NCBI GenBank assembly: GCA_964522195.1
Contig: CAZFSV010000002.1
Coordinates: forward strand, 36,743-100,742
Source of the DNA: an uncultured Candidatus Saccharibacteria bacterium
GTDB taxonomy: Bacteria; Patescibacteriota; Minisyncoccia; Phycocordibacterales; UBA9973
Reading direction: 5' to 3'
DNA length: 64,000 nt
The position numbers and the translations under genes are program-made. Below the pieces are notes generated by a model. That model did not search any database. It was not told the DNA's origin and saw only the letters and a program-made list of their open reading frames with translations. Each line of letters begins with the position of its first letter. The first letter of the stretch is position 1. This document shows, piece after piece, positions 7,867-57,911 of this stretch.

Positions 7867-8271
7867 ATGGATAGTAATTTTATTTTTCGTTTTTTGTTTA
7901 TTGTAATATGTTTGGGTTTTATTGGTTATTTTACAAAAAAACAAAATGAAGTAGAAACAATGGAACAGAAGAGTTTTGATTCTGAATTAAGTATGTTGAA
8001 AGATTCAATATATTATTTAAATCAAAAATTAGATGCTTTAAATTTTTCTTGTAAAAAAGATACCATTATAGCTACCCCGAAAGGTGGAAGTCTTTGTGGA
8101 ACTTTTAAGATGGATGAAACAGAAGCTTTAGCTTTTGCTAAAAAATTTAATTACCCGGTTAGATATAATCATTTAGGTAAGCCTAATGTTATTATTCAGG
8201 AAGCAGAAGAATTTTCTGTAGGATTGCAACCAAAAGTTATAAAACATTTAAAACCAAAAAATAAAAAATAA
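7867..8271 (+). CDS. Hypothetical membrane-anchored protein
   Basis: N-terminal TM helix. No recognisable domain. Confidence 0.4.
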   Translation: MDSNFIFRFLFIVICLGFIGYFTKKQNEVETMEQKSFDSELSMLKDSIYYLNQKLDALNFSCKKDTIIATPKGGSLCGTFKMDETEALAFAKKFNYPVRYNHLGKPNVIIQEAEEFSVGLQPKVIKHLKPKNKK

Positions 8272-16580: not shown

Positions 16581-18539
16581 TTACAACAAATTTTCAGGGT
16601 CTATTTGAATATCAAAGTTTTTTTCTAAATAATTTAATTTTTTATACAATTCTTCGTCTATGTGACTATTTGAAATTAAGTTCGGTGTGGACCAATTTTC
16701 CCTATTTAATTTAATTAAAATATTTACAGTTGTTTTATTCTTTGTTTGTCCATTTGAACTTTTAAAAATTATTGGATTATATTCATTAAAATTCTCTTCA
16801 ATAAATTTTTTGACTTTTAAATTTTCTTCACTGTTTCCAAAATAAGTAAGTTTAATAAATCTTACATAAGGTGGATATTTTAAAATTTTCCTATCTTGCA
16901 ACTCCTCGTTAATATAATTTAATAAATTTTTATTTTTAATACTTAAAATCGCTTCATTTTCAGGATTTCTTGTTTCTATAATTAAATTTTCACGAGTTAT
17001 ATCTATTGTGTTAAATAAAATATTAATCACTTTTTCATTAATTTTGAAATTTGGAATCGTGAATAAAGAATCAAAAGAAGCGATCATAGATAAATCAACT
17101 TTTTCTCTTAGATAAAAGAAAGCCATTTCGGTCCCAAGTAATATAGAATTTTCTGTTTTATAAAATTCATTTATGACTTTTATAGCTTCTTTGTTGTTTT
17201 TAATATTAGTTTTATCTAGTTGGAATATTTTTACGTTTTTTATATTTTTTTCTAATTCCTCCTTGATTTTATCTATACCAATACCTAAAGGTACTAAATT
17301 CCAACCATCACAATGAATACATTTATTCATTGTATTTTCTTCTTTTTTACATTTATTACACAAAAAAATTCTTTGTTCTTTACTTTTAGTTTGATATAAA
17401 ACAAGAGGAGATTTGCAATCTTTGCATAAAACTTCATTTTGACAATCTTTACAGACTGTAAAAGTTGCAAGTCCTTTACGCAAAGCAAATACAAAAATTT
17501 TACCTTTATTTGTAAGGGTTTTTTTAATTTCTAAAATACTTTTTTCGTCTAAAATTTCAAATTTTTTTTCTTCTCGATCTGTATTTTTAATAATTTTATT
17601 TTTATCTAAAATAGTAATTTCTCCAAAATAAGGTAAACGATAAGACATTTTTTCTAATTCGTTTAAATTATCTATTTTTATTCTTTCTATTGTTTCAAAA
17701 CGAAGCAATTTATCAGCTAAAATTAATTTTGCGTTGATTTTTGAAGCAAAAATTTCAATAAATATCCTTAAATCAAAAAATGGTTTTTGAAAAGTTTTGT
17801 AACTATTACTATTTTCTTCTTCTATGATAATAGTTTTTAAATTTAAAATAGGTATTGATAAAAATTGTGGGGTACCTATGATTACCACAGGGTGGGGGTT
17901 TTGAAGAATTTCTTTGATTTTTTCTAAGAGTTTATTTTTGTTTAAATTATTTGATAAGGTATAAACAAATTTTTCTATTCCTTTGTTTAAATTCTCTTCA
18001 AATTCACTCAAAGAGTGATCTGTGGGTAATACAATAAAAATTGATTCTTTGTTAGCAAAAGCACCTCTAATATATCTTTTGTAATAATCTATTCTTTCTT
18101 CTTTAGAATTTTGAAATAATAATTTTTCTGATTTTATTTCAGAATTTCTTACTGTATTTCTTGAAATATCATAATCTTTAGCTAATAAATCATAATTTTC
18201 TTTAATTATGCTTGGAATCAAAAAAGACAACATATAGTTCTTGTTTACAATAAAATATTTACTAGTTAAAAAAACAGCTTCTAAAAATTCTTTTCTAAAA
18301 ATAGAAATTTCTTTCTTTTCAGCTATTTTTTTGATATTGAAATTCATATTTTTAATTTTAGATTTTAAGTCTAGTAAATTTTCTATACTAACAACTAAAC
18401 CTAAACTTTTTTTAGTTTTGATAGTTATGCTTACAATATCACCAACTTCAATATTTTCCTTAGTAAAATAAGTTAGTTCTTCGGCAAAAGCTTGCTTTTT
18501 TAAAGGTAATATTTGTAATACTTTCATTCCTGAATTCAT
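16581..18539 (-). CDS. priA: Primosomal protein N' (PriA) with degenerate helicase motifs
   Basis: N-terminal 3'-DNA-binding domain and two CxxC...CxxC zinc fingers are retained. Aligns collinearly with E. coli PriA, but Walker A is NSKEER (18081-18110) instead of GSGKTE, and Walker B is EEEN (17811-17822) instead of DEEH. Confidence 0.75.
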   Translation of the reverse strand: MNSGMKVLQILPLKKQAFAEELTYFTKENIEVGDIVSITIKTKKSLGLVVSIENLLDLKSKIKNMNFNIKKIAEKKEISIFRKEFLEAVFLTSKYFIVNKNYMLSFLIPSIIKENYDLLAKDYDISRNTVRNSEIKSEKLLFQNSKEERIDYYKRYIRGAFANKESIFIVLPTDHSLSEFEENLNKGIEKFVYTLSNNLNKNKLLEKIKEILQNPHPVVIIGTPQFLSIPILNLKTIIIEEENSNSYKTFQKPFFDLRIFIEIFASKINAKLILADKLLRFETIERIKIDNLNELEKMSYRLPYFGEITILDKNKIIKNTDREEKKFEILDEKSILEIKKTLTNKGKIFVFALRKGLATFTVCKDCQNEVLCKDCKSPLVLYQTKSKEQRIFLCNKCKKEENTMNKCIHCDGWNLVPLGIGIDKIKEELEKNIKNVKIFQLDKTNIKNNKEAIKVINEFYKTENSILLGTEMAFFYLREKVDLSMIASFDSLFTIPNFKINEKVINILFNTIDITRENLIIETRNPENEAILSIKNKNLLNYINEELQDRKILKYPPYVRFIKLTYFGNSEENLKVKKFIEENFNEYNPIIFKSSNGQTKNKTTVNILIKLNRENWSTPNLISNSHIDEELYKKLNYLEKNFDIQIDPENLL

Positions 18540-18576: not shown

Positions 18577-19590
18577 ATGAGTTTATTTTCGAAAAAATTA
18601 GGTATAGATTTAGGTACTGCAAATACTCTTGTTTTTGTGCCTGGAAAAGGGATAGTTTTAAATGAACCTTCTGTCGTATCTGTGTCTTTAGAAGATAATA
18701 AAATTTTAGCTATTGGTAAAGAAGCTAAAGAAATGATAGGTAAAACCCCTGAAGCTATTATTACTTATTGTCCAATGAAAGATGGGGTTATTGCTGATTA
18801 TCGTATTACTGAAGCTATGCTTAGATATTTTATAAATAAAGCAATGGGTAAATTTAATTTATGGAAACCTGATGTTATGGTTTCTGTTCCGGCTGGAGTA
18901 ACTTCAACAGAACGTCGTGCTGTAGTAGAGGCAACACTCAAAGCTGGGGCTCGCAATGCTTATGTTGTTAAAGAACCAATCTTAGCTGCTATAGGTGCAG
19001 GTATTCCTATTTATGAATCTCGGGGTCATATGGTTGTTGATATTGGAGGAGGAACTACTGATGTGGCTGTTATTTCTTTAGGTGGAATTGTAGCTTGTAC
19101 TTCTGTTAAATGTGCTGGCAATAAAATTGATCTTGCTATAGCAGATTATATTAAGAAAACTTTTAATTTAGCTATTGGAGATAAAACTGCTGAAGAAGTA
19201 AAAATAAAAATAGGTGGAGCGATTTCACTTGAAGAAGAATTAAAAGTCACCATAAAAGGACGTGATTATATTCAAGGACTTCCAAGGAGCGCTCAAGTTG
19301 GAACTAATGAAATAGTTAAAGCTATTGATAATGAACTTAAACAAATTGTAAAAGCTATCAAAGACGTTCTGCAAGAAATTCCCCCAGAACTCGCTTCTGA
19401 TATTATTGATAATGGAATTATTATGACTGGTGGAACTTCACTTTTACGCAATTTGTCTGATTTGATTTATAGAAAAACTGGAGTTAAAGCAACGGTGGCT
19501 GAGGATGCCTTGTATTGCGTAGTTAAAGGTACGGGTATTGCGCTTGAGCATTTAGATGTTTATAAAAAAGCTATTTTAAGTAAAAGATAA
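18577..19590 (+). CDS. mreB: Rod shape-determining protein MreB
   Basis: Actin-fold motifs GIDLGTANT and DIGGGTTD. Confidence 0.95.
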   Translation: MSLFSKKLGIDLGTANTLVFVPGKGIVLNEPSVVSVSLEDNKILAIGKEAKEMIGKTPEAIITYCPMKDGVIADYRITEAMLRYFINKAMGKFNLWKPDVMVSVPAGVTSTERRAVVEATLKAGARNAYVVKEPILAAIGAGIPIYESRGHMVVDIGGGTTDVAVISLGGIVACTSVKCAGNKIDLAIADYIKKTFNLAIGDKTAEEVKIKIGGAISLEEELKVTIKGRDYIQGLPRSAQVGTNEIVKAIDNELKQIVKAIKDVLQEIPPELASDIIDNGIIMTGGTSLLRNLSDLIYRKTGVKATVAEDALYCVVKGTGIALEHLDVYKKAILSKR

Positions 19591-19591: not shown

Positions 19592-20266
19592 ATGTTAAAT
19601 CATATTAATAAAACTAATTTACACCACGCGTATCTAATAGAAGGTGGAGAAGATATTTTAAATTCTCTTTTGGGTTTTATCAAAAAAGAACTTGATATAG
19701 AAACTGTATCGAATCCAGATTTTTATTTTAAAAAATATGATACTTTTAAAATTGACGATGCTAGGTTTTTAATTAGTATTAAAGATGAAAAATCTATAAA
19801 AGGAGATAAGAAAATTGTTATAATACAAACTAATTCTGTTTTAAGAGAAGCTCAAAATGCTATGCTTAAAATGTTTGAAGAACCTATTTTAGACACTATC
19901 TTTTTTTTAATAGTAAAAGACAAAAATATTTTACTGCCTACATTTTTCTCTCGTTTTTATTTTGTTTCAAATGCAGATAAAAACATTTCTTTTGAAAAAG
20001 AAGCAAATGATTTTATAAAAATGAATTTAAAAGACAGATTAGAATTTATTAAAATTTTAACAGTTAAAGTAGATGAAGATGAAGAAGGTTTTGAGGCTCC
20101 TCGCCATAAAGCTTTAGAATTTTTAAATGCTTTAGAGTTTATTTTATCTCAAAAAGAAAATCAAGATAAAGAAATTTTCAATAAAATCTTTGAAATCAGA
20201 AGTTTCTTACGAGATCCTTCAAGTCAAGCAAAAATGCTACTTGAAGCAATAGCTATAAGTTTATAG
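19592..20266 (+). CDS. holB: DNA polymerase III delta'-like clamp-loader subunit (no P-loop)
   Basis: HAYLIEG, AQNAMLKMFEEP and FFSRFYFV resemble delta' box motifs. No GxxGxGK is present. Confidence 0.5.
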   Translation: MLNHINKTNLHHAYLIEGGEDILNSLLGFIKKELDIETVSNPDFYFKKYDTFKIDDARFLISIKDEKSIKGDKKIVIIQTNSVLREAQNAMLKMFEEPILDTIFFLIVKDKNILLPTFFSRFYFVSNADKNISFEKEANDFIKMNLKDRLEFIKILTVKVDEDEEGFEAPRHKALEFLNALEFILSQKENQDKEIFNKIFEIRSFLRDPSSQAKMLLEAIAISL

Positions 20267-20267: not shown

Positions 20268-20786
20268 TTAATTTCCAAAATTTTCAAAAATTGATTTTTG
20301 AGTTTCAAGGTCTATTTTGTTTGTAGTTAGGATTATCATCTCTGTGGTTAATCCTAAATCTTTTTTAATATTTTCAAATAAATATTCGTATGGTAGGGGA
20401 GAAATCCAGACGGAATTCTTAAGACATACAAATCCTGCTTTTTTTAATAAATAGCGTAATGATTCACGTTCGTTTTTTCTGGTTTCAGGAAGATCGAGAA
20501 TTATCATTCTCCAATATCCATCCCAAGTTGTATTAACTAGAGTATTTTCATTATCTAATTTAAGACTATAAAGTTTCTTTTTTCCTTCTTTAGTAAGGCT
20601 TATGTAGTCTTGATTACCTGAGTCGTGAATTCGAGCAAAACCACTGTTTACGAGGTTTTTGAGGCTTCTGGAGAGGGCATATTTCTCTTTCTTGTCTTCT
20701 TTGTCTTTCAAAGACTTTATAGAGGTAGCCCTTTTTTCAGCTAATTTTTTAAGGATTTTTTTGGAAATATCTTGATTGCTTGACAT
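20268..20786 (-). CDS. PaaX-family winged-helix transcriptional regulator
   Basis: C-terminal WDGYWRMIILDLPETR...LRYLLKKAGFVCLKNSVWISP fits the PaaX_C pattern (WDG.W....LPE..R..LR..L...GFG.L..GVW..P). N-terminal wHTH. Confidence 0.55.
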   Translation of the reverse strand: MSSNQDISKKILKKLAEKRATSIKSLKDKEDKKEKYALSRSLKNLVNSGFARIHDSGNQDYISLTKEGKKKLYSLKLDNENTLVNTTWDGYWRMIILDLPETRKNERESLRYLLKKAGFVCLKNSVWISPLPYEYLFENIKKDLGLTTEMIILTTNKIDLETQKSIFENFGN

Positions 20787-20823
20787 AGATATATCATATC
20801 ATATATACTAGATTATACAAGTA

Positions 20824-20839
20824 TTTCGCGGTCGCGAAA
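20824..20839. promoter_or_regulatory. GC-rich inverted repeat TTTCGCG-GT-CGCGAAA in the divergent PaaX-like/dnaK intergenic region
   Basis: Perfect 7-2-7 palindrome standing out against AT-rich flanks. Does not match CIRCE or HAIR consensus. Confidence 0.45.
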
Positions 20840-20897
20840 AACAAGTAAAATTATATAAATTTATTAAAAATATTATAAATTAACAAAGTAAAACAAT

Positions 20898-22775
20898 ATG
20901 TCAAAAATAATAGGTATAGATTTAGGTACAACAAATAGTGCAGTCGCTATAATCGAAGGAGGAAATCCAAAGATTGTAGAAAATATTGAAGGAGCTCGAA
21001 CTACTCCATCTATAGTTTCTATTGCAAAAAATGGAGATAGACTAGTAGGACTTTTAGCAAAACGCCAAGCCGTAACAAATCCAGAAAATACAATTTATGG
21101 TATTAAAAGATTTATGGGCCACAATTTTGAAGATCCAGAAGTTCAAAAAGATTTAAAAAATTCTTCTTTTAAAATTCAAAAAGGAACTGATGGTGGAGTA
21201 GAAGTTATGATTGGAGATAAATGGATGCGTCCTGAAGAAGTTTCTGCAATGATTTTAGCTAAAATAAAAGCAGATGTTGAAGCAAAAACAGGAGAGAAAA
21301 TAACTGAAGCCGTGATAACAGTCCCTGCTTATTTTAACGATGCTCAAAGAAAAGCTACAAAAGACGCTGGAGTTATTGCAGGGCTTGATGTAAAAAGAAT
21401 TATCAATGAACCGACAGCCGCAGCTCTTGCTTATGGATTTAATAAAAAGAAAAATGAAAAAATTGTAGTATATGATTTTGGAGGAGGAACTTTCGATGTG
21501 TCAGTTTTGGAAATTGGAGATGATGTTATCGAAGTAAAGTCTACTGATGGAGATTCTCATTTAGGAGGACGTGATATCGATCACAAGATTATTGCTTGGA
21601 TTGCAGAAGAATTTAAAAAGACTTCTGGTGTTGATGTTCGTAATGATAAATTAGCACTACAAAGATTAGATGAAGCTTCTGAAAAAGCAAAAATAGAACT
21701 TTCAACAGCAGTAGAAACAGAAATAAATATTCCTTTTATAACTTCAACAGCTGAAGGCCCTCAACACTTATTACTTAAAATGACTCGCGCTCAATTAGAA
21801 TCTATTGCTGACGAATATATAACTCGTTCTATAGAAATCACTAAAAAGGCTTTAGCTGCTTCAGGATTTTCTATGAATGATATTCACGAAATCATAATGG
21901 TTGGAGGTCAAACTCGTATGCCAAAGATAGTAGAAGAAGTGAAGAAAGTTTTCGGCAAAACTCCAAATTTATCTATTAATCCAGATGAAGTTGTGGCTCT
22001 TGGTGCTGCAGTTCAAGCTGGGGTATTAGCAGGAGATGTGCGTGATGTGTTATTGCTTGATGTTATACCACTTTCTTTAGGAATAGAAACTTTAGGTGGA
22101 GTGGCTACAAAATTAGTAGAGAGAAATACAACAATTCCGGCCTCCAAATCTCAAATTTTCTCAACAGCAGCAGACAATCAAACTTCAGTAGAAATTCATA
22201 TAGTGCAAGGTGAACGACCTATGGCAAGCGACAATAAATCCCTAGGACGATTTATTTTAGATGGAGTTCCACCTGCACCTCGTGGTATTCCTCAAGTTGA
22301 AGTTACTTTTGATGTTGATGCTAATGGAATTCTAAATGTAAAAGCTATGGAAAAAGCTTCAGGTAAAACTCAATCTATTCGTATTGAGGCAAGTTCAGGA
22401 CTTAAAGATGAAGATATTAAGAAAATGCAAGCTGATGCAGAACTTAACGCTGAAGAAGATAAAAAGAAGAAAGAATTAGTTGATGTGAAAAATACCGCAG
22501 AAATGACTATGTACACAGCTGAAAAATCTTTAAAAGAGAATGAAGCGAAATTAGACGAAGCTTTGAAAACAGAATTAAATACAAAAATTACAAATTTGAA
22601 AAATGTAAAAGATGGTTCTGATATGGAAGCTATTAAAAAATCAACTGAAGAATTATCAAATGAAATGTCTAAAATAGGAGAAGCTTTAGCGAAAGCAGGA
22701 GAGACTCCAAATACTGAAACTAAAACTGCTGAAGAGCAACCTGTAGAAGTAGAAAACGAAGAGAAAAAAGAATAA
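20898..22775 (+). CDS. dnaK: Molecular chaperone DnaK (Hsp70)
   Basis: [18 protein letters not shown] and the full Hsp70 architecture with acidic C-terminus. Confidence 0.97.
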
Positions 22776-22793
22776 TTTGTAAAATTTTATAAA

Positions 22794-22830
22794 AGCCCGA
22801 TTTTTGAAAAAAATCGGGCTTTTAGTTTTT
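22794..22830 (+). terminator. Intrinsic terminator after dnaK
   Basis: 12-bp stem agcccgattttt/aaaaatcgggct followed by a T-run. Confidence 0.65.
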
Positions 22831-22854
22831 CTTTTCTATTGCTATAATTAAATT

Positions 22855-25110
22855 ATGCAAATACCTGGATTACCAGAAAATAGAGATTTAACATATATCG
22901 GTTATACAACTTACCGAGGTCAAAACCAACTTTTTGGTATTAAAAGAAAAGACCGAAGGCAACATATGTATATTTTAGGAAAATCTGGAACAGGTAAGTC
23001 TGTGCTTATGTCTAATATGATGATGCAAAATATCATCAATGGTGAAGGAGTTTGTGTTGTGGATCCTCACGGAGAATTAGTCGAAGGAGTACTTCAATCT
23101 ATTCCCCCTCATCGAATGAAAGATGTAGTTTATTTTAATCCAGCTGATACTGATTATCATATTGGTTTTAATGTTTTAGAATTAGTTGATTCAAAATACA
23201 AGCATCTAGTTGCTTCTGGTCTTATGGGAATTTTTACTAAAATTTGGGCCAATGCTTGGTCTGCCCGAATGGAATATATTTTAAATAATACTATTTTAGC
23301 CCTGCTTGATACTCCAGGCACGACTCTACTAGGTATTCAAAGAATGCTTGTCGATAAAGATTATCGTCAGAAGATTATTTCAAATTTAAAAGATCCTGTG
23401 ATTAAGGCTTTTTGGATTCACGAATATGAATCTTGGCAAGATAAATTTAGAAATGAAGCCATAGCACCTATTCAAAACAAAGTAGGTCAATTCCTTTCTA
23501 CTTCAGTTATTCGTAATATTGTAGGTCAATCAAAAAGTACAATAAATATTTTTGATTTAATGAATGAAGGTAAGATTTTCTTGGTTAATGTATCTAAAGG
23601 TAGAATAGGTGAAGACAACTCTAAATTACTCGGAGGTATGATAATTACTAAAATTCAACTTGCTGCTATGGAGCGTGTGCGTATTCCCGAAGAAGAGCGT
23701 AAAGACTTTTATTTATATGTGGACGAATTTCAAAATTTCGTAACAGATTCCTTTGCTTCAATTTTATCTGAAGCTCGTAAATACAGACTTTCTTTAACCG
23801 TGGCTCATCAATATACTGCTCAACTAGTAACAAAAGAGTCTTCTGCTATGCGAGATTCTATTTTTGGTAACGTTGGAACTATGATCGTTTTTCGAGTTGG
23901 TGCTGATGATGCTGATTTCTTAGAGAAAGAATTTGCTCCTGAATTTACTCCTGAAGATATTGTGAATTTGCCTAACTATAAAATTTATTTGAAATTAATG
24001 ATAGACGGTATTACTTCTCGTCCTTTTTCTTCAAAAACAATTCCACCCTTAGTTAAAGGTGGAGATAAAAGCATAGAAGAAGAAGTTATTAAATCTTCTC
24101 GAGAACTTTATTGTCGAACAAAAGAAGACGTCGAAGATGAAATCAATAAATGGAGTGGTATGACACTTGGAGATGATAATTCTAAAGATGGAAATAATAA
24201 AAATAATAATTTTACTGGTGAAAAATTCGAAACAGTTTGCTCTAATTGTGGTAATTTAACTTCTGTACCTTTCAAACCTGAACCTGGTCGGGCTGTTTAT
24301 TGCAAAGATTGTATTATTAAAATTAAAGCAGGAGAAATAAAACCTATTAAAGTTTCTCCTGACCAATTAAAAAAAGACGAAGCTAGATTTTTTAAACCTT
24401 TAGCTGATTTGGGTATAGAATTTGTTTCTACTGAAAATAATATTAAAACTAAAGACACAGAAAGAAAGACAGAAAATAAATCAAATATTGTAGAAAAAAA
24501 AGATTTTTTTAGAAATAAAAAAGATTTTATTTCTAAACCAAAAATTAATAATAATTTTCGAGAAAAACCTAGTGCTTTTACTAAAATAGGTTTAGGTTTA
24601 AAGGAATTACTAGATAAAGCTTTGCATAATGAAACTGATGAAACTGTATCTTTAGAAGAAGTTAAAACCAATAATTTGATTGTACCAAAAGATGAGAAGA
24701 ATATTTCTTTAGAAGATTTAAAATCTAAAAATAATCTAGAAAAAAATAACAACAAAGATAAATCTGCGAATGAAAAAACAATGAGTAGTTTTAAAAGTTT
24801 AATTTTAGAAAAAGAAAAAGAAATAGTAAAAGAAGAAGTCAAAATTTCAACACCAGAAATTAAAATAGAAGAATTTAATAAAGAAGAAAAAGAGGAAGTT
24901 GTTTTAGAGAATAAATCAGAAATAAAAGAACCTATCCACAATACTCCACAGAGCGATGTAGGCGAGGAAAGTCATTTTGATAAATATTATAAAGCTGATT
25001 TTGAGAATTCTAAAAAAGAAAATAAATCTGGTACAGAGCCAAATTTTTCAAAAGAAAATATTCCCGAAGTTCCCGAAGAAGTCCTTAAAAAAATTTTAGA
25101 TCAAAAATAA
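22855..25110 (+). CDS. TraD/VirD4/HerA-FtsK-superfamily P-loop ATPase (type IV coupling protein-like) with C-terminal zinc ribbon and K/E-rich disordered tail
   Basis: RQHMYILGKSGTGKSVLMSN...VCVVDPHGEL (Walker A plus HGE) and FYLYVDEFQNF (Walker B). CSNCGNLTSVPFKPEPGRAVYCKDC zinc ribbon at about 24238-24315. About 260 aa low-complexity K/E/N tail. No TM helices. Confidence 0.55.
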   Translation: MQIPGLPENRDLTYIGYTTYRGQNQLFGIKRKDRRQHMYILGKSGTGKSVLMSNMMMQNIINGEGVCVVDPHGELVEGVLQSIPPHRMKDVVYFNPADTDYHIGFNVLELVDSKYKHLVASGLMGIFTKIWANAWSARMEYILNNTILALLDTPGTTLLGIQRMLVDKDYRQKIISNLKDPVIKAFWIHEYESWQDKFRNEAIAPIQNKVGQFLSTSVIRNIVGQSKSTINIFDLMNEGKIFLVNVSKGRIGEDNSKLLGGMIITKIQLAAMERVRIPEEERKDFYLYVDEFQNFVTDSFASILSEARKYRLSLTVAHQYTAQLVTKESSAMRDSIFGNVGTMIVFRVGADDADFLEKEFAPEFTPEDIVNLPNYKIYLKLMIDGITSRPFSSKTIPPLVKGGDKSIEEEVIKSSRELYCRTKEDVEDEINKWSGMTLGDDNSKDGNNKNNNFTGEKFETVCSNCGNLTSVPFKPEPGRAVYCKDCIIKIKAGEIKPIKVSPDQLKKDEARFFKPLADLGIEFVSTENNIKTKDTERKTENKSNIVEKKDFFRNKKDFISKPKINNNFREKPSAFTKIGLGLKELLDKALHNETDETVSLEEVKTNNLIVPKDEKNISLEDLKSKNNLEKNNNKDKSANEKTMSSFKSLILEKEKEIVKEEVKISTPEIKIEEFNKEEKEEVVLENKSEIKEPIHNTPQSDVGEESHFDKYYKADFENSKKENKSGTEPNFSKENIPEVPEEVLKKILDQK

Positions 25111-30246: not shown

Positions 30247-30864
30247 TTATTTCCTATTTTTTAATGCATTTTTTAGGGTTTCGTTGTCTGAGTATTCTAG
30301 CTCGGTGCCTGTGGAGAGTCCACGACCTAAAGATGAGATAATTATATTTTTCTTTTCACAAATTTCTTTTATCTCATTTCTTAAATAAAAATCAGTATGA
30401 TCTCCAGCAGGGGATATTGAAAAAGCTAAAATTATTTCTTTTAAATTATTTTCTTTATTTATTTTTTCTTTTAATTCTTTGATTCTGACAAAGTTTAAAG
30501 TTTTAGTATCTGCAATAGGTATAAGTCCTCCTAAAACAAAATATTTTCCATTATAAGTTCTACTTTTTAGAATACTTTCTAAATCAGAATCTTTTTCTAC
30601 TATCACAAGCAAAGTATTATCAATATTTAAATTAGAACAAATATTACATAAATTATTTTTTATATTAGAATCTGTTTTTAAAAAAAATCTAAAGCAATCG
30701 TTACATTTAGTAATATCTTTTTTTAATTCTAAAATTGTTTTAGCCAAATTTTCACTATATGCTCCGTTGCGAGCCATAAGAAAATATACAAAACGCCGAG
30801 CTTGTCTTTCTCCAATGCCAGGGAATTCTTTGAATATTTCAGTTAATTTTTCTATATTATCCAT
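30247..30864 (-). CDS. recR: Recombination protein RecR
   Basis: HhH N-term (FPGIGERQARR), C4 zinc finger (CNDC...CNIC), Toprim domain. Confidence 0.9.
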   Translation of the reverse strand: MDNIEKLTEIFKEFPGIGERQARRFVYFLMARNGAYSENLAKTILELKKDITKCNDCFRFFLKTDSNIKNNLCNICSNLNIDNTLLVIVEKDSDLESILKSRTYNGKYFVLGGLIPIADTKTLNFVRIKELKEKINKENNLKEIILAFSISPAGDHTDFYLRNEIKEICEKKNIIISSLGRGLSTGTELEYSDNETLKNALKNRK

Positions 30865-30937
30865 TTACTCTGAACTTATTATACAATAATGATTTGAAAA
30901 TCTACTACAGGATCCATCCGGTTAAATATTTTTAATT

Positions 30938-32341
30938 TTAAAAATCGTCTAAGCCGCCCTCAACTTTAGCTGGAGCAAAGTCAGAAAGATTGCTTTTTTC
31001 TAAGTTTAGGAAGCTGGTAGTTTTACCGTCAAAGTAAAGTTCAACTTTACCAGTCGGACCATTTCTATGTTTTTCTATTAAAATTTCAGCGATATTATTT
31101 CTCTCAGATTCATCTTTACCTTTATCTTCACGGTGGATAAACATAACAACATCGGCGTCTTGCTCTATGGATCCTGAATCACGCAGATCTGACAAGCGTG
31201 GTTTACCTCCACGTGCTTCAACAGCACGAGAAAGTTGAGAAAGTGCTAATACAGGCACGTCAAGTTCTTTAGCCAAGCTTTTTAAGGATCGTGAAATTTC
31301 TGTCACTTGATTAACCATAGAATCGTGATTTTTACTTGTAGTCATAAGTTGCAAGTAATCTACTACTATAAAATCAAGACCTTTTTCAGCTTTTATTCTA
31401 CGAGAAGTTGCCTTCATACGAGCAATAGAGTTTCCAGGTTGATCGTCTATGAAAATTTTTGCTTTAGATAATTTATCTAAAGAATCACGCAGTCGAGAGA
31501 AATCATTGTCTCCGTTTATTCTACCTGTACGCAAATTCCAAGCATTAACTTTAGATTCTGCTGATAGCATTCTGTCTACTAATTGCTGAGAGGACATTTC
31601 AAGAGAGAAAATTAAAACAGATTTATCATAATTTGTAGCACTCATACGAGCCATGTCTAAGGCTAGAGTAGTTTTACCAACGGAAGGACGGGCAGCTAAA
31701 ATAATTAAATCAGAAGGTTGAAGTCCAGATAGCATTTCATCCAAATCACGAATTCCTGTAGGTACTCCGCGAAGCATGCCTTTATTTTCGTGTAATTTTT
31801 CAAGTCTTTCATAAGCTTCAGGTAAAGCATCTTTCATGCTTACATATTTTTGATTTTTAGGTTGAGAAATAACTGAGAAAATTTTCTTTTCAGCTAAATC
31901 TAAAATATCATCCATATGGTTTTCTCCATCTTGCATAGCGATCTCAGAAACGAAATCCGCAGCTTCTATTAAAGCTCGCAAAATATATTTTTTTTGAACT
32001 ATTTGTGCGTAATGCTTTACATTAGTTGAAGCAGGAACAGAATTTACTAATTCGGTTAAATATTGATTTCCTCCGATAGAATCTAAAATTCCTCTTTCAT
32101 TTAATTTTGTAGATAAAGATAAAATATCAATAGGTTCGTGTTTGCTGTTAAGTTCAAGCATCGCGTCAAAAATCTTTTTATGTTTTTCTGCATAAAACGA
32201 ATCAGGGATTATAAGATCTTCAATTTCACTTAAACTATCCTTGCGAAGCAGTATAGAACCTAAAACAGCTTTTTCTCCGTCCAAATGTTGAGGAGGAATT
32301 CTAACACTATTCCAATTTCTATTTTGTTTCTCTTTAGACAT
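30938..32341 (-). CDS. dnaB: Replicative DNA helicase DnaB
   Basis: Walker A GKTTLALDMA, RecA-like C-domain, N-terminal DnaB domain. Confidence 0.95.
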   Translation of the reverse strand: MSKEKQNRNWNSVRIPPQHLDGEKAVLGSILLRKDSLSEIEDLIIPDSFYAEKHKKIFDAMLELNSKHEPIDILSLSTKLNERGILDSIGGNQYLTELVNSVPASTNVKHYAQIVQKKYILRALIEAADFVSEIAMQDGENHMDDILDLAEKKIFSVISQPKNQKYVSMKDALPEAYERLEKLHENKGMLRGVPTGIRDLDEMLSGLQPSDLIILAARPSVGKTTLALDMARMSATNYDKSVLIFSLEMSSQQLVDRMLSAESKVNAWNLRTGRINGDNDFSRLRDSLDKLSKAKIFIDDQPGNSIARMKATSRRIKAEKGLDFIVVDYLQLMTTSKNHDSMVNQVTEISRSLKSLAKELDVPVLALSQLSRAVEARGGKPRLSDLRDSGSIEQDADVVMFIHREDKGKDESERNNIAEILIEKHRNGPTGKVELYFDGKTTSFLNLEKSNLSDFAPAKVEGGLDDF

Positions 32342-39577: not shown

Positions 39578-40006
39578 ATGAAGAAAAAAATTTTAATAAT
39601 TTTATTTTTAATATCTTTATCATCACCTTTTTACTCTTTGGCAGAAGAAAACAATAAAAACACCAACAATATCAAAATAATCACAAACGAATTTTTAAAT
39701 AAAATACCATTTAAAGGTAAATTAGATAACTACTTTTTGCAATCTGAAGTTTTTAGAAAAAATCAATTATTTTCTTTTTTGATTCAAAAAGATAAAGCTC
39801 AAAATCAAATTTTTGTTTTTGAAGAAAGAATAAATAATCAAACCTTAGAAGAAAATAAAAAAGAAGTTAAAAATGTTTTAATTTATTTAAAATACTATTA
39901 TTTTGGATTGTTAGCTTTTATTTTTAATAATATTTTTATATATTATATATTAATATTAATTATTTTGTTTTATATAATTTATAAAATTTGGAATAAATTT
40001 AAATAA
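39578..40006 (+). CDS. Hypothetical exported protein with C-terminal TM
   Basis: Signal peptide and C-terminal hydrophobic anchor. Sits where mreC/mreD-like genes often sit, upstream of PBP2. Confidence 0.35.
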   Translation: MKKKILIILFLISLSSPFYSLAEENNKNTNNIKIITNEFLNKIPFKGKLDNYFLQSEVFRKNQLFSFLIQKDKAQNQIFVFEERINNQTLEENKKEVKNVLIYLKYYYFGLLAFIFNNIFIYYILILIILFYIIYKIWNKFK

Positions 40007-41879: not shown

Positions 41880-44800
41880 ATGAAAAAATATTTATCAGGT
41901 TTTCTTGTTTTTAGTTTAGTTTTCGGAGCTCTAATTTTACCAATCAACCAAACAAATGCTGCTCCAGTAACAATTTTCTCAGAGAGTTTTGGTGATAATA
42001 ACTTAGGTAATGATATGGACCCAATATCATGGAATAGTTGGTCCGATGGAGGAAACAGTGGCGATGATGCAGAAATAAGAGTTGGTTCAAATGGTAATAA
42101 CAATGATTCTGTAAGTCCTAATGGTGGTAGATTTGCTATGGCATTAGGCCAAGATGGTTATTTTTGTAAAACTATAGATACTACAGGATATAATAATGTA
42201 AATCTTTCTTATTATTGGAGAGGTGATAGTAATGCGAATAATAATGATTTTGGATTAGTTCAAATTAAAGAAGCTGGTAATGGAATCTTTTGTAGTGATA
42301 ATTCAGGATGGACTACTTTAAAAAGTCATGCATTAGATATTGATAATAATTGGTCTACTCAATCTGCATTTACAGATAACATATTAAACAATAAAAATTT
42401 ATTACTTCGTTTTAAGGTTGATGCAAATCAAAATACTGAAGATTTTCGTGTTGATGGTATTTTGATAAGTGGAGATTTAATACCTGTTGCTCCAACTACA
42501 GCTAAAGTTACTATTGTAAAATACATCAATGGAGTACCAGCTACACCAGAAAATACTAATAATGCTTCTTTCCCTATGACTGCAACATGGAATGCTACTA
42601 ATATAGGTTCTGGCACAGGTAACTATAATCTAAGTTCTACTGGTTTCAATAACCCAAATCCATATCAAGCTACTACTGCAGATATGACTACAGGAGCTGA
42701 TTATAGTACTTATGAAAATACTGGAACTGCATGTGTCTCACCAATGATGTATGCTCTAACAGGCTATACAACAGGAGATACTTTAAATGATGCTACTTTG
42801 GCTGTTCCATCCCTAACCACTCCAAGTTTTACAAATCTACAAACTGATAAATTCGTAATCGTTTGGAATAAGACTTGTGTTGATTTACCTACTCACTTAA
42901 CTCCAGCTGACAATTCTGTTCGAACTACAGCTGAGCAAACTCTGATAGATTGGTCTGATGTTGTAAGTTGGGCAAGTCCTGTAACTTATATGTATCAATC
43001 AGCTCTTTCAATGGCTACAAATATGGATGGATCATTTACAAGTCCTGCATACACTTCAGGAGCTTTAACTAGTTCAGAAATACCAACTCCAGGTACTCCA
43101 GAAGGTATTTACTACTGGCATGTCAAAGCTACTGATTCTGCAAACAACACAAGTGGATGGACTATTCCTTGGAAAATAACTATCAATAATACAGGAAGTC
43201 TAACTGTAAATAAAAATGTTCTAAAACCAGACGGTGTTACCGAAGTATCAGATAATCAATCTTTCTCTGTAATGCTAAACGGTGGAAATACTCAAAACGT
43301 AAGTGAAAATATTTCATATACTTATACAAATTTAACTCCAGGAACTTACACAGTTACAGAAGGAGTAAATGGTAATTATGAATTTGTTTCTTTCTCTAAT
43401 GACTCTGACTCTGAAACAGCAGGCGCTCAAGTAGAAGTAGTTGCAAATCAAAATACAGTTGTAACAATAACTAACAAACAAAAAAAAGGAACTCTTACAA
43501 TAAATAAAATCGTTACAAATCCTAACGATGGAGAAGCTATCGCTACAGATTTCTCTTTCCAAGTTAACGGAGGCGAAGCTATTGCTTTTACAGATAGTGA
43601 TGACGAAAATAATTTAACAGGTCAAAATATTATTTCTGTAGATCCTGGAACTTATACAATTACAGAAGTTATCCCAGAAGGAGCTTATGCTATATCATAT
43701 AGTGCTAACTGTACTAATGCAGTATTAACAAGCAACAGTAACATAGTTTGTACAATCACAAATAGTGATATTCCTGCAGGTAAAGGTGCTATAACTGTAG
43801 TTAAAAATTTACCTAATGATAACGGAGGAGATTTCGTATTAAGTGATTTTCCTCTTAATGTATCAGGTACAACAACAGAAGAAACACCTATGTCTGTAAG
43901 TGAATCAGTAGCTAGTGGTATTTCTGAATTTTTTACACCAGGAACTTATGTTGTTTCCGAAGATAATCCTAATGAATTAAGTGGTTATACAACAACTATC
44001 AGTTGTACAGATGGAGAAAATACACTAACAAATGGTAATATTACAGTTTCAGATCAACAAGCTTGGGTTTGTACTATTACTAATGATGACGAACCTGCAA
44101 AATTAACTATAATAAAAAAAGTGGTTAATAATGCTTGGATGGGTACTTTAGAAGAAACTTTCAATTTTAACTTAATAGGAGAAGACACTGAAGAAGAGAT
44201 TGCAATCACAACAGAAGCTCCTGAAATGATGGAAGAAGAATCAAAAATCTACGAACAAGATTATCAAGCTATGGGTGAATCAGAAGTTATTACTTTGAAT
44301 TCCGGAAGTTATACTTTAACTGAAGATTTATTACCTGAATGGAATTTAACAGATATTTCTTGTTCTGTTAAAACAGAAGAAACAGAAAATGGTGTATATC
44401 TTTCATTGCAAAATGGTGAAGATGTTACTTGTACTTTTGTAAATACTCGTAAAACAGGAACTTTGGTAATAGAAAAAATTGTAGTAAATGATGACGGTAA
44501 AGAACTTACTGTTTCTGATTTCGCAGGATTTACTATAAACAATAGTGAACCAATTCCTTTTGAATCAGATGAAGACGAAATGTCAGGAGGTAAGACTGTT
44601 ATTTTAGAATTAGGTACTTATCAAATTTCTGAACCAGTAACAGAAGGATATTACAAAGTAACTGAAAATTGTGAAGCTGTAAACATAACAGAAGGTACAA
44701 TAAAAACTTGTAAATTTAGAAATGATGATGTTGGATTCTTTGTTCACTCAGGTGGATCTGGATCTAGTGGTGGTCAAGTTTTAGGAGCTTCTACAGAAAC

Positions 44801-45176
44801 ACCAGCCCCATCACCAACAACTCCTACAGAAACTCCAAAAGGTGAGGTTTTAGGAGCAACTTCATGTAGTACAATTTACTTAAACGACTTCCTGTACTTT
44901 GGAAAGAAAAATAATCCTGAACAAGTTAAGTTGTTACAAACTTTCTTGAATGAAGAATTAGGATTAAAATTAGTAGTGGATGGAAAATTTGGTAGAACTA
45001 CAAGAAATGCAGTTATAGCTTTCCAAGAAAAATACGGAACTGATGTCTTAACTCCTTGGGCTCCGTTTGGACTAAAGAGTGGAAAGGGAACAGGTAACGT
45101 TTACAAGACTACAAAATGGAAAATCAACATGATTAAATGTGCTGATTTGAAATTAGAAGTTCCTCAACTTCCATAA
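41880..45176 (+). CDS. Large secreted surface protein: N-terminal lectin/galactose-binding-like domain, five prealbumin-fold (SpaA/Cna-B-like) repeats, C-terminal peptidoglycan-binding (PG_binding_1) domain
   Basis: Signal peptide. Repeats carry the ...GTYT(V/I)TE... pattern about every 110-120 aa. C-terminal LLQTFLNEELGLKLVVDGKFGRTTRNAVIAFQEKYG is PG_binding_1-like. Confidence 0.65.
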   Translation: MKKYLSGFLVFSLVFGALILPINQTNAAPVTIFSESFGDNNLGNDMDPISWNSWSDGGNSGDDAEIRVGSNGNNNDSVSPNGGRFAMALGQDGYFCKTIDTTGYNNVNLSYYWRGDSNANNNDFGLVQIKEAGNGIFCSDNSGWTTLKSHALDIDNNWSTQSAFTDNILNNKNLLLRFKVDANQNTEDFRVDGILISGDLIPVAPTTAKVTIVKYINGVPATPENTNNASFPMTATWNATNIGSGTGNYNLSSTGFNNPNPYQATTADMTTGADYSTYENTGTACVSPMMYALTGYTTGDTLNDATLAVPSLTTPSFTNLQTDKFVIVWNKTCVDLPTHLTPADNSVRTTAEQTLIDWSDVVSWASPVTYMYQSALSMATNMDGSFTSPAYTSGALTSSEIPTPGTPEGIYYWHVKATDSANNTSGWTIPWKITINNTGSLTVNKNVLKPDGVTEVSDNQSFSVMLNGGNTQNVSENISYTYTNLTPGTYTVTEGVNGNYEFVSFSNDSDSETAGAQVEVVANQNTVVTITNKQKKGTLTINKIVTNPNDGEAIATDFSFQVNGGEAIAFTDSDDENNLTGQNIISVDPGTYTITEVIPEGAYAISYSANCTNAVLTSNSNIVCTITNSDIPAGKGAITVVKNLPNDNGGDFVLSDFPLNVSGTTTEETPMSVSESVASGISEFFTPGTYVVSEDNPNELSGYTTTISCTDGENTLTNGNITVSDQQAWVCTITNDDEPAKLTIIKKVVNNAWMGTLEETFNFNLIGEDTEEEIAITTEAPEMMEEESKIYEQDYQAMGESEVITLNSGSYTLTEDLLPEWNLTDISCSVKTEETENGVYLSLQNGEDVTCTFVNTRKTGTLVIEKIVVNDDGKELTVSDFAGFTINNSEPIPFESDEDEMSGGKTVILELGTYQISEPVTEGYYKVTENCEAVNITEGTIKTCKFRNDDVGFFVHSGGSGSSGGQVLGASTETPAPSPTTPTETPKGEVLGATSCSTIYLNDFLYFGKKNNPEQVKLLQTFLNEELGLKLVVDGKFGRTTRNAVIAFQEKYGTDVLTPWAPFGLKSGKGTGNVYKTTKWKINMIKCADLKLEVPQLP

Positions 45177-48294: not shown

Positions 48295-48326
48295 AAAAAA
48301 CCTCCTTTTTACGGGAGGTTTTTTAT
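48295..48326. terminator. Bidirectional terminator between rplI and rpmA
   Basis: aaaaaacctcc-loop-ggaggtttttt with A and T tracts on both sides. Confidence 0.65.
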
Positions 48327-48331
48327 ATTAT

Positions 48332-48604
48332 TTAATTTACGTTTACAACTTTTTTAACAACAGTTTTGTTATTAAATGAAGTTTTTCTTTTTGATCCGAA
48401 TTTAACAACTCCTTCTTTTAAAGCAAATAATGTATGGTCTTTGCCTATACCTACGTTATTTCCAGCTAAGATTACAGTTCCTCTTTGGCGAACAATAATG
48501 TCTCCAGATTTTGCTCTTTGACCATCAGCAAGTTTAGTACCTAGGTACTTTGGATTCGAATCTCTTAAGTTTTTGGCGGTTCCGCCGGCTTTCCTATGTG
48601 CCAT
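48332..48604 (-). CDS. rpmA: 50S ribosomal protein L27
   Basis: [23 protein letters not shown]-terminal signature. Confidence 0.95.
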
Positions 48605-48660
48605 ATTATTTTTTTAAATTTAATGTTAAAATTAATGTATAAATAACTATAAACCATTTT

Positions 48661-49041
48661 ATGGAAAAAATCAAGTATTTTTTAGAAAGTGAAAAAGGTA
48701 AAAATATATTAATAATTTTAGTTATTATTTTAGTTGGTTTAGGGTCTTTTGAGCTAGGTAGAATGTCCGTAAAAGAGGTTAAAAATGACTCAAATATAGG
48801 GTTTTCAAGTCAAGAAGCTAATGTTATTAAATCAACTCAAAACGAGCTTTTAGAGCAAAAATACGAGTTTAAAGGGGTAGATTTGAATGGTAAAGAGTAT
48901 TTTGCTTCAAAAAGAGGAAGTAAGTACTATCCATTTGGTTGTTCTGCTGGAAAAAGTATAAAAGAAGAAAATAGAATATATTTCTCTAATGAAGAAGAAG
49001 CAATAAAAGCCGGCTATTCTAAATCATCTTCTTGTAATTAA
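48661..49041 (+). CDS. Membrane-anchored protein with degenerate Ada-type zinc-binding-like C-terminal domain
   Basis: C-terminus YYPFGCSAGKSIKEENRIYFSNEEEAIKAGYSKSSSC follows the Ada_Zn_binding pattern (C...EN.v.F.s.eeA..aGyrpC) but retains only 2 of 4 Cys ligands. Confidence 0.35.
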   Translation: MEKIKYFLESEKGKNILIILVIILVGLGSFELGRMSVKEVKNDSNIGFSSQEANVIKSTQNELLEQKYEFKGVDLNGKEYFASKRGSKYYPFGCSAGKSIKEENRIYFSNEEEAIKAGYSKSSSCN

Positions 49042-49049
49042 TTAAACAA

Positions 49050-49084
49050 AAAACTACAAAGGGTTACCCTTTGTAGTTTTTTTA
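49050..49084. terminator. Bidirectional terminator (ctacaaagggt-t-accctttgtag)
   Basis: 11-bp stem flanked by aaaa and tttt, between convergent genes. Confidence 0.6.
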
Positions 49085-49094
49085 TAAAATAGAT

Positions 49095-50288
49095 TTAATG
49101 ACTGTGCTTATGATGTTTTAAATTTTCTTCTTCTTTTTTGAGGATTTCTTCGTTCACTTCTCGCTCATCTTTTTTCATTAAAAGTAGGGTAGCGATATAA
49201 GTAGTTATAGGTACTGCAAGGATCAAACTAATACTACCAACTAAAATACGAACTATTTCTGTGGCAAAAATTTCACGATTTAAAATTAATTCTATGTTTG
49301 TGGAATTTGAAAAAAGAAGCAAGAGTGGGAGAGAAGCACCAGCATAAGCAATAGCTAAAGTATCAACTAAAGCTCCTATATGTTCCCGACCCATACGCAT
49401 TGCCCTTTTAAAAATTTTCTTTCTTTTTATGTGTGGAGCTATATGATGCAACTCTTCAACAAAGATAGCTTGATTAATAGCTATATCATAAAGCACTCCT
49501 AAAAGACCTATCATAATTCCACCTATCAATATTCCAACTAAATCAATTTCTCCTGCAAAATTTCTATTCAAGAAGACAGCTTCTTCGTTATCGTAACCAG
49601 TAAATTTTCCATATTCAACCGAAAAATAAGCAAGTGTTCCAGTAAAAATAATAGTTGTAATCATTCCTAAAACTGCTGAAGTTGTAGTTTTGTTTACGCC
49701 ATGAGTAATATATGATCCAGCAATAATTATAAAAGAAGATACAATAATACTAATCAAAACAGGGGAATAGCCAGCTAAAATTCCAGGAAGGAGCGCATAT
49801 AAAATTAATATAAAACTTAGAGCAAGACTTATAAGTCCTCGCAAGCCTTGAACTCCACCTATTAGAACAGTCAACACTATGAAAATAAAAAGTAAAATAT
49901 AAATTATATTTAATCTGTACGGCTCCATCATCGCAAAAAATTCTTCTCCTTCGCGAGTTGTATGATTGAGGTAAAAAATATCTCCAACTTGAAGGGGAGT
50001 GAAATCATTGTTAAAGGTTACTACCCTGTCTTTATTATTTCCCTCTAGGATTATTGCTCTGATTTCTTGATTTTTATTTTCTATATTAAAAACTGGAATT
50101 ATATCTGATTCTTTAAAGTTCATATCTAGGACTTTTGCTTTTACAATTTCTTGAGTCTCCTCTATTGGGGTAGGTGAATCCTCTCTCTCATTTATTTGAG
50201 CGACAACCTTATTATTAGAAATAAAAAAAATACTTATTAAAAGTAGGGAAAGAGTAATTATATTTAATTTGTTTTTAAATTTAAACAT
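49095..50288 (-). CDS. YibE/F-family integral membrane protein
   Basis: N-terminal signal plus extracytoplasmic domain, followed by about 8 TM helices in a YibE/F-like arrangement. Confidence 0.45.
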   Translation of the reverse strand: MFKFKNKLNIITLSLLLISIFFISNNKVVAQINEREDSPTPIEETQEIVKAKVLDMNFKESDIIPVFNIENKNQEIRAIILEGNNKDRVVTFNNDFTPLQVGDIFYLNHTTREGEEFFAMMEPYRLNIIYILLFIFIVLTVLIGGVQGLRGLISLALSFILILYALLPGILAGYSPVLISIIVSSFIIIAGSYITHGVNKTTTSAVLGMITTIIFTGTLAYFSVEYGKFTGYDNEEAVFLNRNFAGEIDLVGILIGGIMIGLLGVLYDIAINQAIFVEELHHIAPHIKRKKIFKRAMRMGREHIGALVDTLAIAYAGASLPLLLLFSNSTNIELILNREIFATEIVRILVGSISLILAVPITTYIATLLLMKKDEREVNEEILKKEEENLKHHKHSH

Positions 50289-54481: not shown

Positions 54482-55072
54482 CTACGTGTTATTTTTATAA
54501 TATTTATTTTTAAATTTATCAAATAAATTTGTTAAATCATTTTCAATTTCAATTTTGCAAACAAAACAATCTTTTAACTTGGGTGTAATACCTTTTTTAA
54601 GAACACTTAGCGAAAGATCAAATTTATATTCACTTGTATGAACTCCATTTACTATTCTTTTAGTTAATTTTTCCCAATTTATATCTTGTTTTCTTGCAAT
54701 AAGGACATATAAATCATTTGGCGTAAAATCAAGAAAAATAAAAGCATCGTAATTTCTATTTTTAAAAAATTTTTCATGCTGAAATGTATCAGCCGACGCA
54801 CCTATTGTGGCTGTTTTAACTTCAATCTTTATGTCATCTACAACAATATCCCAATATTTATCATTATTAGTTATTGCTTTTTCATATTCAACTTTATATC
54901 TTCTTTTTGTAAAAATTTCATTTAAAAGCAACTCTCCCACTTCCCCAGTGTCATCATTATTTAATTTTTTTATATTCTCATATTTACCACCTTTTGCCCA
55001 ATTATTTTTCTTTTGTTTTCTATTTTCAGGAAGTGATATTAATATATTTTTTATAATTTCTTCTATTTTCAT
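54482..55072 (-). CDS. Putative type II restriction endonuclease (PD-(D/E)xK fold)
   Basis: WDIVVDDIKIEVKTA gives a D...(D/E)xK catalytic pattern. Immediately downstream of, and co-oriented with, a DNA MTase (4-nt gap). Confidence 0.5.
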   Translation of the reverse strand: MKIEEIIKNILISLPENRKQKKNNWAKGGKYENIKKLNNDDTGEVGELLLNEIFTKRRYKVEYEKAITNNDKYWDIVVDDIKIEVKTATIGASADTFQHEKFFKNRNYDAFIFLDFTPNDLYVLIARKQDINWEKLTKRIVNGVHTSEYKFDLSLSVLKKGITPKLKDCFVCKIEIENDLTNLFDKFKNKYYKNNT

Positions 55073-57482: not shown

Positions 57483-57911
57483 TTATCTAAAACTACAAGT
57501 TAGTACACATTGCAACGTGCAGATTTGTGCGTCTTTGTCGTGTCTACATGCGGAGGCGCATCCATTCCATTCTCCACCTTTCGCTATACATTGATTTTCA
57601 CTAAAAGAATTAATCTCGCAGACTTTACTCTCTTCATACCAAGTACCTTTTTGAGACTCACAAGATAATTTTTTGTTATCTGGAGCTAGGGTGATTTTAT
57701 CGTTCTCTTTTTGTGGAGGAATATTTTCTGGTTTTATAATTTCTGGAGTTTGAATCTGATTATTATTTTCAGGAATTAAAATATTACTATCTAGTTCATT
57801 TGCTGAATAATCTTGTAATTTAGAATCAGAATTCTTAGCTACATTCAAAGCATAATATCCTCCTCCGACAAATATAATTCCTACCAAAACCCATATTGCT
57901 ATTTTTGACAT
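57483..57911 (-). CDS. Secreted/anchored cysteine-rich protein (10 Cys in C-terminal 60 aa)
   Basis: N-terminal signal-anchor, Pro/Asn/Glu-rich linker, Cys-rich C-terminal module. Confidence 0.45.
   Translation of the reverse strand: MSKIAIWVLVGIIFVGGGYYALNVAKNSDSKLQDYSANELDSNILIPENNNQIQTPEIIKPENIPPQKENDKITLAPDNKKLSCESQKGTWYEESKVCEINSFSENQCIAKGGEWNGCASACRHDKDAQICTLQCVLTCSFR

Follow-up and report, generated by a model that had tools for sequence, protein, structure and literature searches.

A Putative PriA Pseudohelicase With a Remodelled ATP Site in a Patescibacterial Genome and Its Relatives

The priA-Like Locus

The stretch of DNA analyzed here, referred to as the window, comprises 64,000 nucleotides (positions 36,743 to 100,742 of contig CAZFSV010000002.1, assembly GCA_964522195.1, from an uncultured Candidatus Saccharibacteria bacterium) and carries on its minus strand a gene for a PriA-like protein (Table 1). 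This open reading frame (ORF) was found at exactly the coordinates given in the original prediction, an annotation made from the sequence alone in which the product had been described as a PriA that kept its DNA-binding and zinc-finger modules and had lost Walker A and Walker B. All of the elements for the binding and hydrolysis of ATP, namely the P-loop, the catalytic glutamate of Walker B, motif III, motif VI and the KG of motif V, were replaced or deleted in the protein, and the degeneration went further than had been described, extending to the winged-helix (WH) domain and to motifs Ia, V and VI. To judge from its sequence, the protein is almost certainly ATPase-dead. The gene probably encodes the orthologue of PriA (primosomal protein N′) in a Patescibacterium of the Paceibacteria/Parcubacteria type, and this orthologue would be a lineage-wide pseudohelicase with a role in fork binding and DnaB recruitment.

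The nearest protein relatives were found in metagenome-assembled genomes of Patescibacteria labelled Nomurabacteria, Paceibacterota or Minisyncoccia. Since the alignment of the family opens at M5 (MKVLQI...), the true start codon is perhaps the ATG at 18527 and not the one at 18539, and the spacer between the gene and the divergent mreB measures 37–49 bp depending on which of them is used. The GC content is about 30% in the window and 25% in the 16–18 kb region that holds the priA-like gene. A scan for promoters and terminators around this gene gave no signal over the shuffled expectation.

Table 1. Coordinates of the priA-like gene, of the parts of its product and of the neighbouring genes discussed in the text (positions within the window; aa, amino acids).
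Feature	Position	Strand	Remarks
priA-like gene (PriA pseudohelicase, predicted)	16581..18539	minus	652 aa, ATG start
N-terminal 3′ DNA-binding domain	18177..18539	minus	aa 1-121; weak PF17764 match, pocket columns, full-length structural alignment
Short variable linker replacing the WH domain of ~70-90 aa	18129..18176	minus	aa 122-137; alignment gap, secondary structure of the AlphaFold2 model
RecA-like helicase lobe 1, catalytically degenerate	17589..18128	minus	about aa 138-317
Walker A (motif I) remnant	18090..18113	minus	QNSKEERI opposite GVTGSGKT; alignment
Walker B (motif II) remnant	17811..17822	minus	EEEN opposite DEEH; alignment
Aromatic-rich-loop region	17766..17801	minus	Y247-R258; conserved Y247, P253, D256, R258
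Motif III remnant	17706..17717	minus	ADKL opposite GSAT; D276 nearly invariant
Helicase lobe 2, first part	17460..17588	minus	about aa 318-360; motif IV R354-K355-G356 opposite RRG
Cysteine-rich region, four CxxC pairs	17304..17459	minus	two predicted Zn sites; alignments
Helicase lobe 2, second part	16959..17303	minus	aa 413-527; motifs V and VI
C-terminal linker helices and C-terminal domain	16584..16958	minus	aa 528-652; boundary approximate
mreB	18577-19590	plus	conserved divergent neighbour
holB-like gene (DNA polymerase III delta′)	19592-20266	plus	adjoins mreB in 74/80 related loci
recR	30247-30864	minus	directly after dnaB
dnaB (replicative helicase)	30938..32341	minus	full-length DnaB and DnaB_C matches; Walker A ARPSVGKT

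Identification of the Protein as PriA

The homology to PriA and the retention of the 3′ DNA-binding domain (3′BD), both of which had been predicted, were supported by profile, phmmer, alignment and structure matches. The NCBIfam model TIGR00595 (priA) matched aa 161-581 with an E-value of 5.4e-55 and 186.9 bits, below its curated cutoff of 230.35. The match to the Pfam domain PF17764 (PriA_3primeBD) was weak (16.6 bits vs a cutoff of 22.7); this domain is precomputed for many members of the family. No DEAD, ResIII or Helicase_C domain was found in the Pfam scan of the protein. When the PDB sequences were searched with phmmer, all of the matches were chains of E. coli or Klebsiella PriA, with E-values of about 1e-17 over aa 173-562.

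Furthermore, an AlphaFold2 model was built from a 75-sequence alignment of the family, with a mean predicted local distance difference test score (pLDDT) of 84.2 and a predicted template modelling score (pTM) of 0.84. The top nine Foldseek matches of this model in the PDB were all PriA (8fak_H, E = 6.6e-37; template modelling scores of 0.69–0.71), the next family being Mfd at 1e-9, and the WH-deletion form of E. coli PriA (6dcr) was among the best structural matches. The order of the domains was that of PriA: the 3′BD, RecA lobe 1, RecA lobe 2 with the inserted cysteine-rich region (CRR), and the C-terminal domain (CTD). The exclusive matching to PriA and the structural alignment therefore indicated that the full PriA architecture is present, beyond a generic superfamily 2 (SF2) core.

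The elements that contact DNA in PriA, and the CRR, were located in sequence alignments. In the 3′-end pocket, Y24 corresponds to Y18 of E. coli and is a tyrosine in 146/151 sequences, and K70 corresponds to K61 and is a lysine or arginine in an equal number of them (146/151). The IGT motif (motif Ib, T223) and both zinc-binding CxxC sets were found where they had been predicted. The four CxxC pairs (C363/366, 372/375, 394/397 and 407/410) aligned with C436, 439, 445, 448, 463, 466, 476 and 479 of E. coli PriA, and the eight cysteines were invariant both in the alignment of GTDB species (81/81) and in the 75-sequence family alignment, the binding of zinc itself being a prediction. By analogy with the role described for the aromatic-rich loop (ARL) of PriA (PMC5175346), the conserved region Y247-R258 is presumed to be a contact with the DNA of the fork junction.

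Loss of the ATPase Motifs

The protein and its relatives were aligned with E. coli PriA (from NC_000913) using MAFFT, and the alignment was repeated with seven canonical PriA sequences of five phyla (S. aureus, Listeria, Monoglobus, Acaryochloris, Parabacteroides, Fusobacterium and E. coli), those other than E. coli having been obtained by tblastn of a plasmid collection (Bacillota, Cyanobacteriota, Bacteroidota and Fusobacteriota). All seven references had the motifs GVT[GS]SGKTE, PEI[AGS][LI]T[PT]Q, DEEH, [GA]SATP, GTQ[MI]..KG and Q[VS].GRAGR intact, together with a motif IV made of two basic residues and a glycine (RRG, but RKG in Fusobacterium).

In the protein under study, motif I was replaced by a segment running from Q143 to an isoleucine, in which R149 aligned with K230 of E. 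coli PriA. The AlphaFold2 model showed at this place a strand (139-143), a turn of two residues and a helix starting at 146, without a phosphate-binding loop. The original prediction had set NSKEER opposite GSGKTE at 18081-18110; the translation (NSKEERIDYY) and the loss of the P-loop were both correct, but the register was about two residues off, as the segment that aligns is KEERID. This offset was immaterial, because neither register has a glycine-rich loop. In motif II, the predicted change of DEEHD to EEENS agreed exactly with the alignment, and 17811-17822 translated as EEEN, but Walker B was not fully lost, two acidic residues (E240 and E242) staying at this position. The family consensus of motif II was E-[HNK]-E-[SN], with His, Asn or Lys at the position of the catalytic glutamate in most of the members.

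The remaining motifs were affected to different degrees. Motif Ia was lost along with a deletion of 4 aa, motif III no longer contained the SAT sequence, as had been predicted, and a deletion of 5 aa in motif VI removed both arginines of the GRAGR arginine fingers. In motif V, GTEM (T470) was kept and the KG was lost, while motif IV was conserved.

An intact P-loop was also sought elsewhere in the protein, as its presence would have refuted the original prediction. The pattern [AG]x4GK[ST] was not found anywhere in the whole sequence. Among 230 relatives, this pattern gave two chance matches (residue 113 of L080 and residue 162 of P0169), both off the Walker A position. The erosion of glycine codons by the low GC content was considered as a cause and rejected: AtpA, AtpD, DnaB, an ABC ATPase and a VirD4-like ATPase encoded in the same window all have a canonical Walker A, and the loss is therefore not a compositional artefact.

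The possibility that the protein is still an active nucleoside triphosphatase (NTPase) or helicase, working with a non-canonical nucleotide site, was weighed against these data. The acidic E240 and E242 at Walker B and the invariant basic R149 at the position of the P-loop lysine would fit such a site, and a second, weaker nucleotide site has been proposed for PriA, according to a review (PMC5778457). Nevertheless, the glycine-rich loop is absent and the model places the short turn and an extended helix there, the arginine fingers of motif VI are deleted, motif III is lost, and the catalytic glutamate is replaced in most of the family. Moreover, the change of lysine to arginine is by itself enough to kill the ATPase of E. 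coli PriA (PMC5778457). An active enzyme was hence considered very improbable.

Distribution and Conservation of the Degenerate Family

Whether the loss was lineage-wide, a question raised by the original prediction, received a clear affirmative answer from 120 homologues, 80 GTDB species and 150 cluster representatives. The homologue and profile searches were considered down to their best 120–150 matches, all of which fell within the degenerate family, so the counts given here are lower bounds. The degenerate pattern was shared by 120/120 of the homologues listed (46–74% identity), each with an arginine at the position of K230. When the genomes of GTDB species were scanned with peptide patterns specific to the family, 278 species matched; in the best 80 of these 278, whose loci were analyzed, all of the ORFs were full-length, with degenerate motifs and the eight cysteines.

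When 1.84 billion cluster representatives were searched with a profile of the family, at least 150 representatives (at 50% identity) scored 528 bits or more. None of the 150 listed, the most divergent of which is 29% identical to the query, had a P-loop at the homologous position, and R149 was kept in 148/151 sequences of the alignment of divergent representatives. E. coli PriA obtained 108.7 bits against the same profile, vs at least 528 bits for the listed members of the family, which is therefore deep and distinct. The labels found among the relatives were Nomurabacteria, Vogelbacteria, Paceibacterota and Parcubacteria, with Vogelbacteria and Parcubacteria occurring among the divergent members. 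The loss of the ATPase motifs is common to hundreds of related ultra-small bacteria of the candidate phyla radiation (CPR)/Patescibacteria. A few divergent members keep the DEEH of motif II; one example is P0221, which has QAGDDDRD in place of a Walker A. This combination suggests that the loss of motif I came before the erosion of motif II.

The 75-sequence family alignment contained 56 invariant columns, among them Q143, R149, E240, E242, D256, R354, K355, G356, T470 and the eight cysteines, and most of these residues were conserved to at least 95% in the 150 divergent representatives. The mean frequency of the most common residue was 0.53 in lobe 1, 0.50 in the CRR and 0.48 in the 3′BD, falling to 0.24, the lowest value of the protein, in the linker. 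Strong purifying selection acts on the CRR and on the elements with which SF2 helicases and PriA touch DNA (the 3′-end pocket, the aromatic loop, motifs Ib and IV and the threonine of motif V).

The loss of the catalytic motifs, in a region of such low GC content, could also have been that of a functionless relic, that is, of a pseudogene in progress. This explanation was rejected. Intact full-length ORFs were present in 80/80 of the GTDB species loci and in the 150 divergent representatives, the invariant columns included all of the cysteines, and the gene order is fixed; the strong conservation and the synteny exclude a pseudogene, and the chance that the gene is a decaying relic was regarded as negligible.

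Gene Neighbourhood

The gene lies in a fixed arrangement, rseP-frr-holB-mreB, divergent from priA, which in turn is convergent with rsmI-atpC-atpD-atpG-atpA. Among the 80 loci compared, mreB adjoined priA upstream in 79 and rsmI was downstream in 68. The holB-like delta′ protein is very short (224 aa) and has no Walker A. Between holB and frr, the region 20268-25110 encodes a PaaX-like regulator, DnaK and a VirD4/TrwB-like coupling ATPase of 751 aa with a treble-clef zinc finger; it looks like a lineage-specific insertion or rearrangement, because frr-rseP directly follows holB in about 70/80 of the relatives.

The original prediction had also named DnaB as a partner encoded nearby. A dnaB gene with an intact Walker A was present in the window (Table 1), and DnaB is presumed to be the client of PriA, encoded 12 kb away. 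As a separate observation, dnaB and recR lie on the same strand (30247-32341) and possibly form a replication/recombination operon. Apart from the priA-like gene, none of the 50 largest ORFs of the window was recognised as coding for an SF2 helicase.

Additionally, several features outside this cluster were recorded. Both the GC skew and the orientation of the genes flip at about 49.0–49.1 kb (region ~48300-49100): from left to right, a positive skew with genes on the plus strand gives way to a negative skew with genes on the minus strand. This is the pattern of converging forks, so a chromosomal terminus is likely at that point; in the left arm, only priA and a few other genes are head-on. 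The 1098-aa product of the ORF 41880-45176 (plus strand) combines several SpaA-like prealbumin-fold domains with a peptidoglycan-binding domain and is probably an adhesin of the cell surface or a pilin-like protein. Five ORFs of 134–361 aa (7867-8271, 39578-40006, 54482-55072, 55076-56161 and 57483-57911) gave no significant Pfam match or only faint sub-threshold ones (such as HTH or Nmad2).

Discussion

The best reading of these data is that the protein recognises forks and recruits DnaB without unwinding DNA; this seems probable from the analogy with the K230R mutant of E. coli PriA and with the PriA of D. radiodurans, and our confidence is higher for the ATPase-dead state than for the loading of DnaB. 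The pseudohelicase would bind abandoned forks and D-loops through its 3′BD and the surface of the helicase lobes, and the CRR would thread or clamp the single-stranded DNA (ssDNA) of the lagging strand. DnaB would then be recruited to this static platform by direct contact, which has been reported for the PriA of D. radiodurans, or via some adaptor or loader. In E. coli, the CRR swings around the lagging-strand ssDNA, which licenses the recruitment of partners (PMC13594977), and a duplex lagging arm must be unwound first (PMC13594977, PMC12871339). Without the unwinding of such an arm, the protein would be restricted to forks whose lagging-strand ssDNA is already exposed, or another enzyme would have to expose it. 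PriA K230R has no ATPase, helicase or translocase activity and supports replication restart in vivo and in vitro via the PriB pathway, the helicase activity being needed only for the PriC route and for some special substrates (PMC5778457).

Several observations weigh against this reading. In the 3′-end pocket, D17 of E. coli is replaced by T23 (Thr/Ser in the family) and G37 is deleted. The WH domain is missing: opposite residues ~110-210 of E. coli PriA, the alignment shows a gap of about 70 aa, and only the variable linker of 16 aa is present there. All of the NCBIfam equivalog models of PriA remained under their curated cutoffs, those of the NF0040xx and NF0114xx series by a wide margin, and most members of the family carry the NCBI label “hypothetical protein”. 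Furthermore, no PriB, DnaT, DnaD, DnaI, DnaC, DciA or SSB was found among the 50 largest ORFs of the window that were scanned.

Some of these points could be accounted for if the family were a PriA-derived paralogue with another job, such as a sensor of DNA structures or a scaffold for recombination or segregation, while restart is performed by another protein encoded outside the window. The sub-threshold scores of the curated models and the distance of the family from canonical PriA would agree with this. So would the former ATP site, which is not in free decay and carries new invariant residues (Q143, R149, E240, E242 and D276) that could mean a new function, and the fixed divergent pairing with mreB, an untypical context for priA. 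Nevertheless, the PriA-specific 3′BD, CRR and CTD are all kept, no other structural match comes close to that with PriA, the JGI annotation names the proteins of this family as the PriA of their genomes, and a replication gene, the holB-like one, belongs to the conserved cluster. In addition, the genomes of Patescibacteria are small and rarely keep paralogues. A paralogue with a different function was consequently judged to be unlikely, and fork recognition with the recruitment of DnaB is the reading retained here.

A broader proposal can be formulated, although it is rather doubtful that all of its parts hold together. PriA pseudohelicases would be the norm in Paceibacteria/Parcubacteria and perhaps in more of the Patescibacteria; the loss would be independent of that of Deinococcus-Thermus, with a convergent change of lysine to arginine; and the ATP pocket would have been rebuilt as an invariant network of charged residues (Q143, R149, E240, E242, D276 and T470) that locks the RecA lobes or docks a ligand or a partner. 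If this were so, a single protein would recognise forks and load DnaB without PriB, DnaT, DnaD or DnaI, that is, as a minimal system of replication restart.

By its motifs, the family is the second clade in which PriA is naturally ATPase-dead, and it contains far more species than the first. Its strong conservation and synteny suggest that what PriA did ancestrally, and cannot do without, is the structure-specific recognition of forks and the recruitment of the helicase, and not unwinding.

The full-text literature on PriA in Patescibacteria, CPR, Parcubacteria, Paceibacteria, Nomurabacteria and Saccharibacteria was searched, and no paper describing an ATPase-dead PriA in these groups was found; neither was any relevant paper on DciA or on loaders in CPR. 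A PriA pseudohelicase has so far been documented experimentally only for Deinococcus, and the Paceibacteria family adds a very large clade. UniProt carries a caution that the actinobacterial PriA (M. tuberculosis) has no detectable helicase domains; if this is true, PriA pseudohelicases are wider spread than the literature states and the novelty is lower. The label given at NCBI is an annotation gap that arises because the curated PriA models miss the family, and the present finding can correct it. The result may be moderately surprising to specialists in replication restart, and it does not represent a new type of system. Lacking both the WH domain and the ATPase, the family provides a natural minimal PriA with which the structure and mechanism of DnaB recruitment without PriB and DnaT could be studied.

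Comparison With Known PriA Proteins

The closest precedent is the PriA of D. radiodurans, which has an arginine at the P-loop lysine, neither hydrolyses ATP nor unwinds DNA, and binds ssDNA, forks and, by direct contact, DnaB (PMC4504706, Lopper et al., 2015); the original prediction had rightly invoked Deinococcus as a PriA without helicase motifs. A review of 2017 (2018 volume of Nucleic Acids Research) names Deinococcus as the exception to the conserved helicase activity of PriA (PMC5778457). As in the PriA of Deinococcus-Thermus, motifs I and II are non-consensus, including the change of Lys to Arg, the DNA-binding modules are retained and the same role is proposed. Unlike in the Deinococcus protein, the degeneration extends to motifs Ia, III and VI, to part of motif V and to the WH domain, the phylum is Patescibacteria, and the lack of activity is predicted. 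No matches to PriA of Deinococcus or Thermus were obtained in the tblastn search of the plasmid collection.

Among the canonical proteins, the closest sequences found were the PriA of Firmicutes (S. aureus, Listeria and Bacillus), which work with DnaD/DnaB/DnaI and are 24–27% identical over aa 219-627. Those proteins, however, have about 800 aa and all of their helicase motifs intact, and no DnaD or DnaI homologues were seen in the window. The PriA of E. coli and Klebsiella (PDB 4NL4, 6DGD and 8FAK) have the same architecture, a CRR with eight cysteines and conserved motifs Ib and IV, ARL and threonine of motif V; the differences are an identity of only about 16%, the lack of the WH domain, the loss of the ATPase motifs and the absence of an evident PriB or DnaT in the window. 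The E. coli mutant priA300 (PriA K230R) likewise has an arginine in place of the Walker A lysine, and its product is dead as an enzyme but competent for the primosome via PriB-DnaT (PMC5778457). In priA300, however, a single change was engineered into an otherwise intact site, whereas in the family described here the remodelling takes in the whole site and natural selection has fixed it throughout a large clade.

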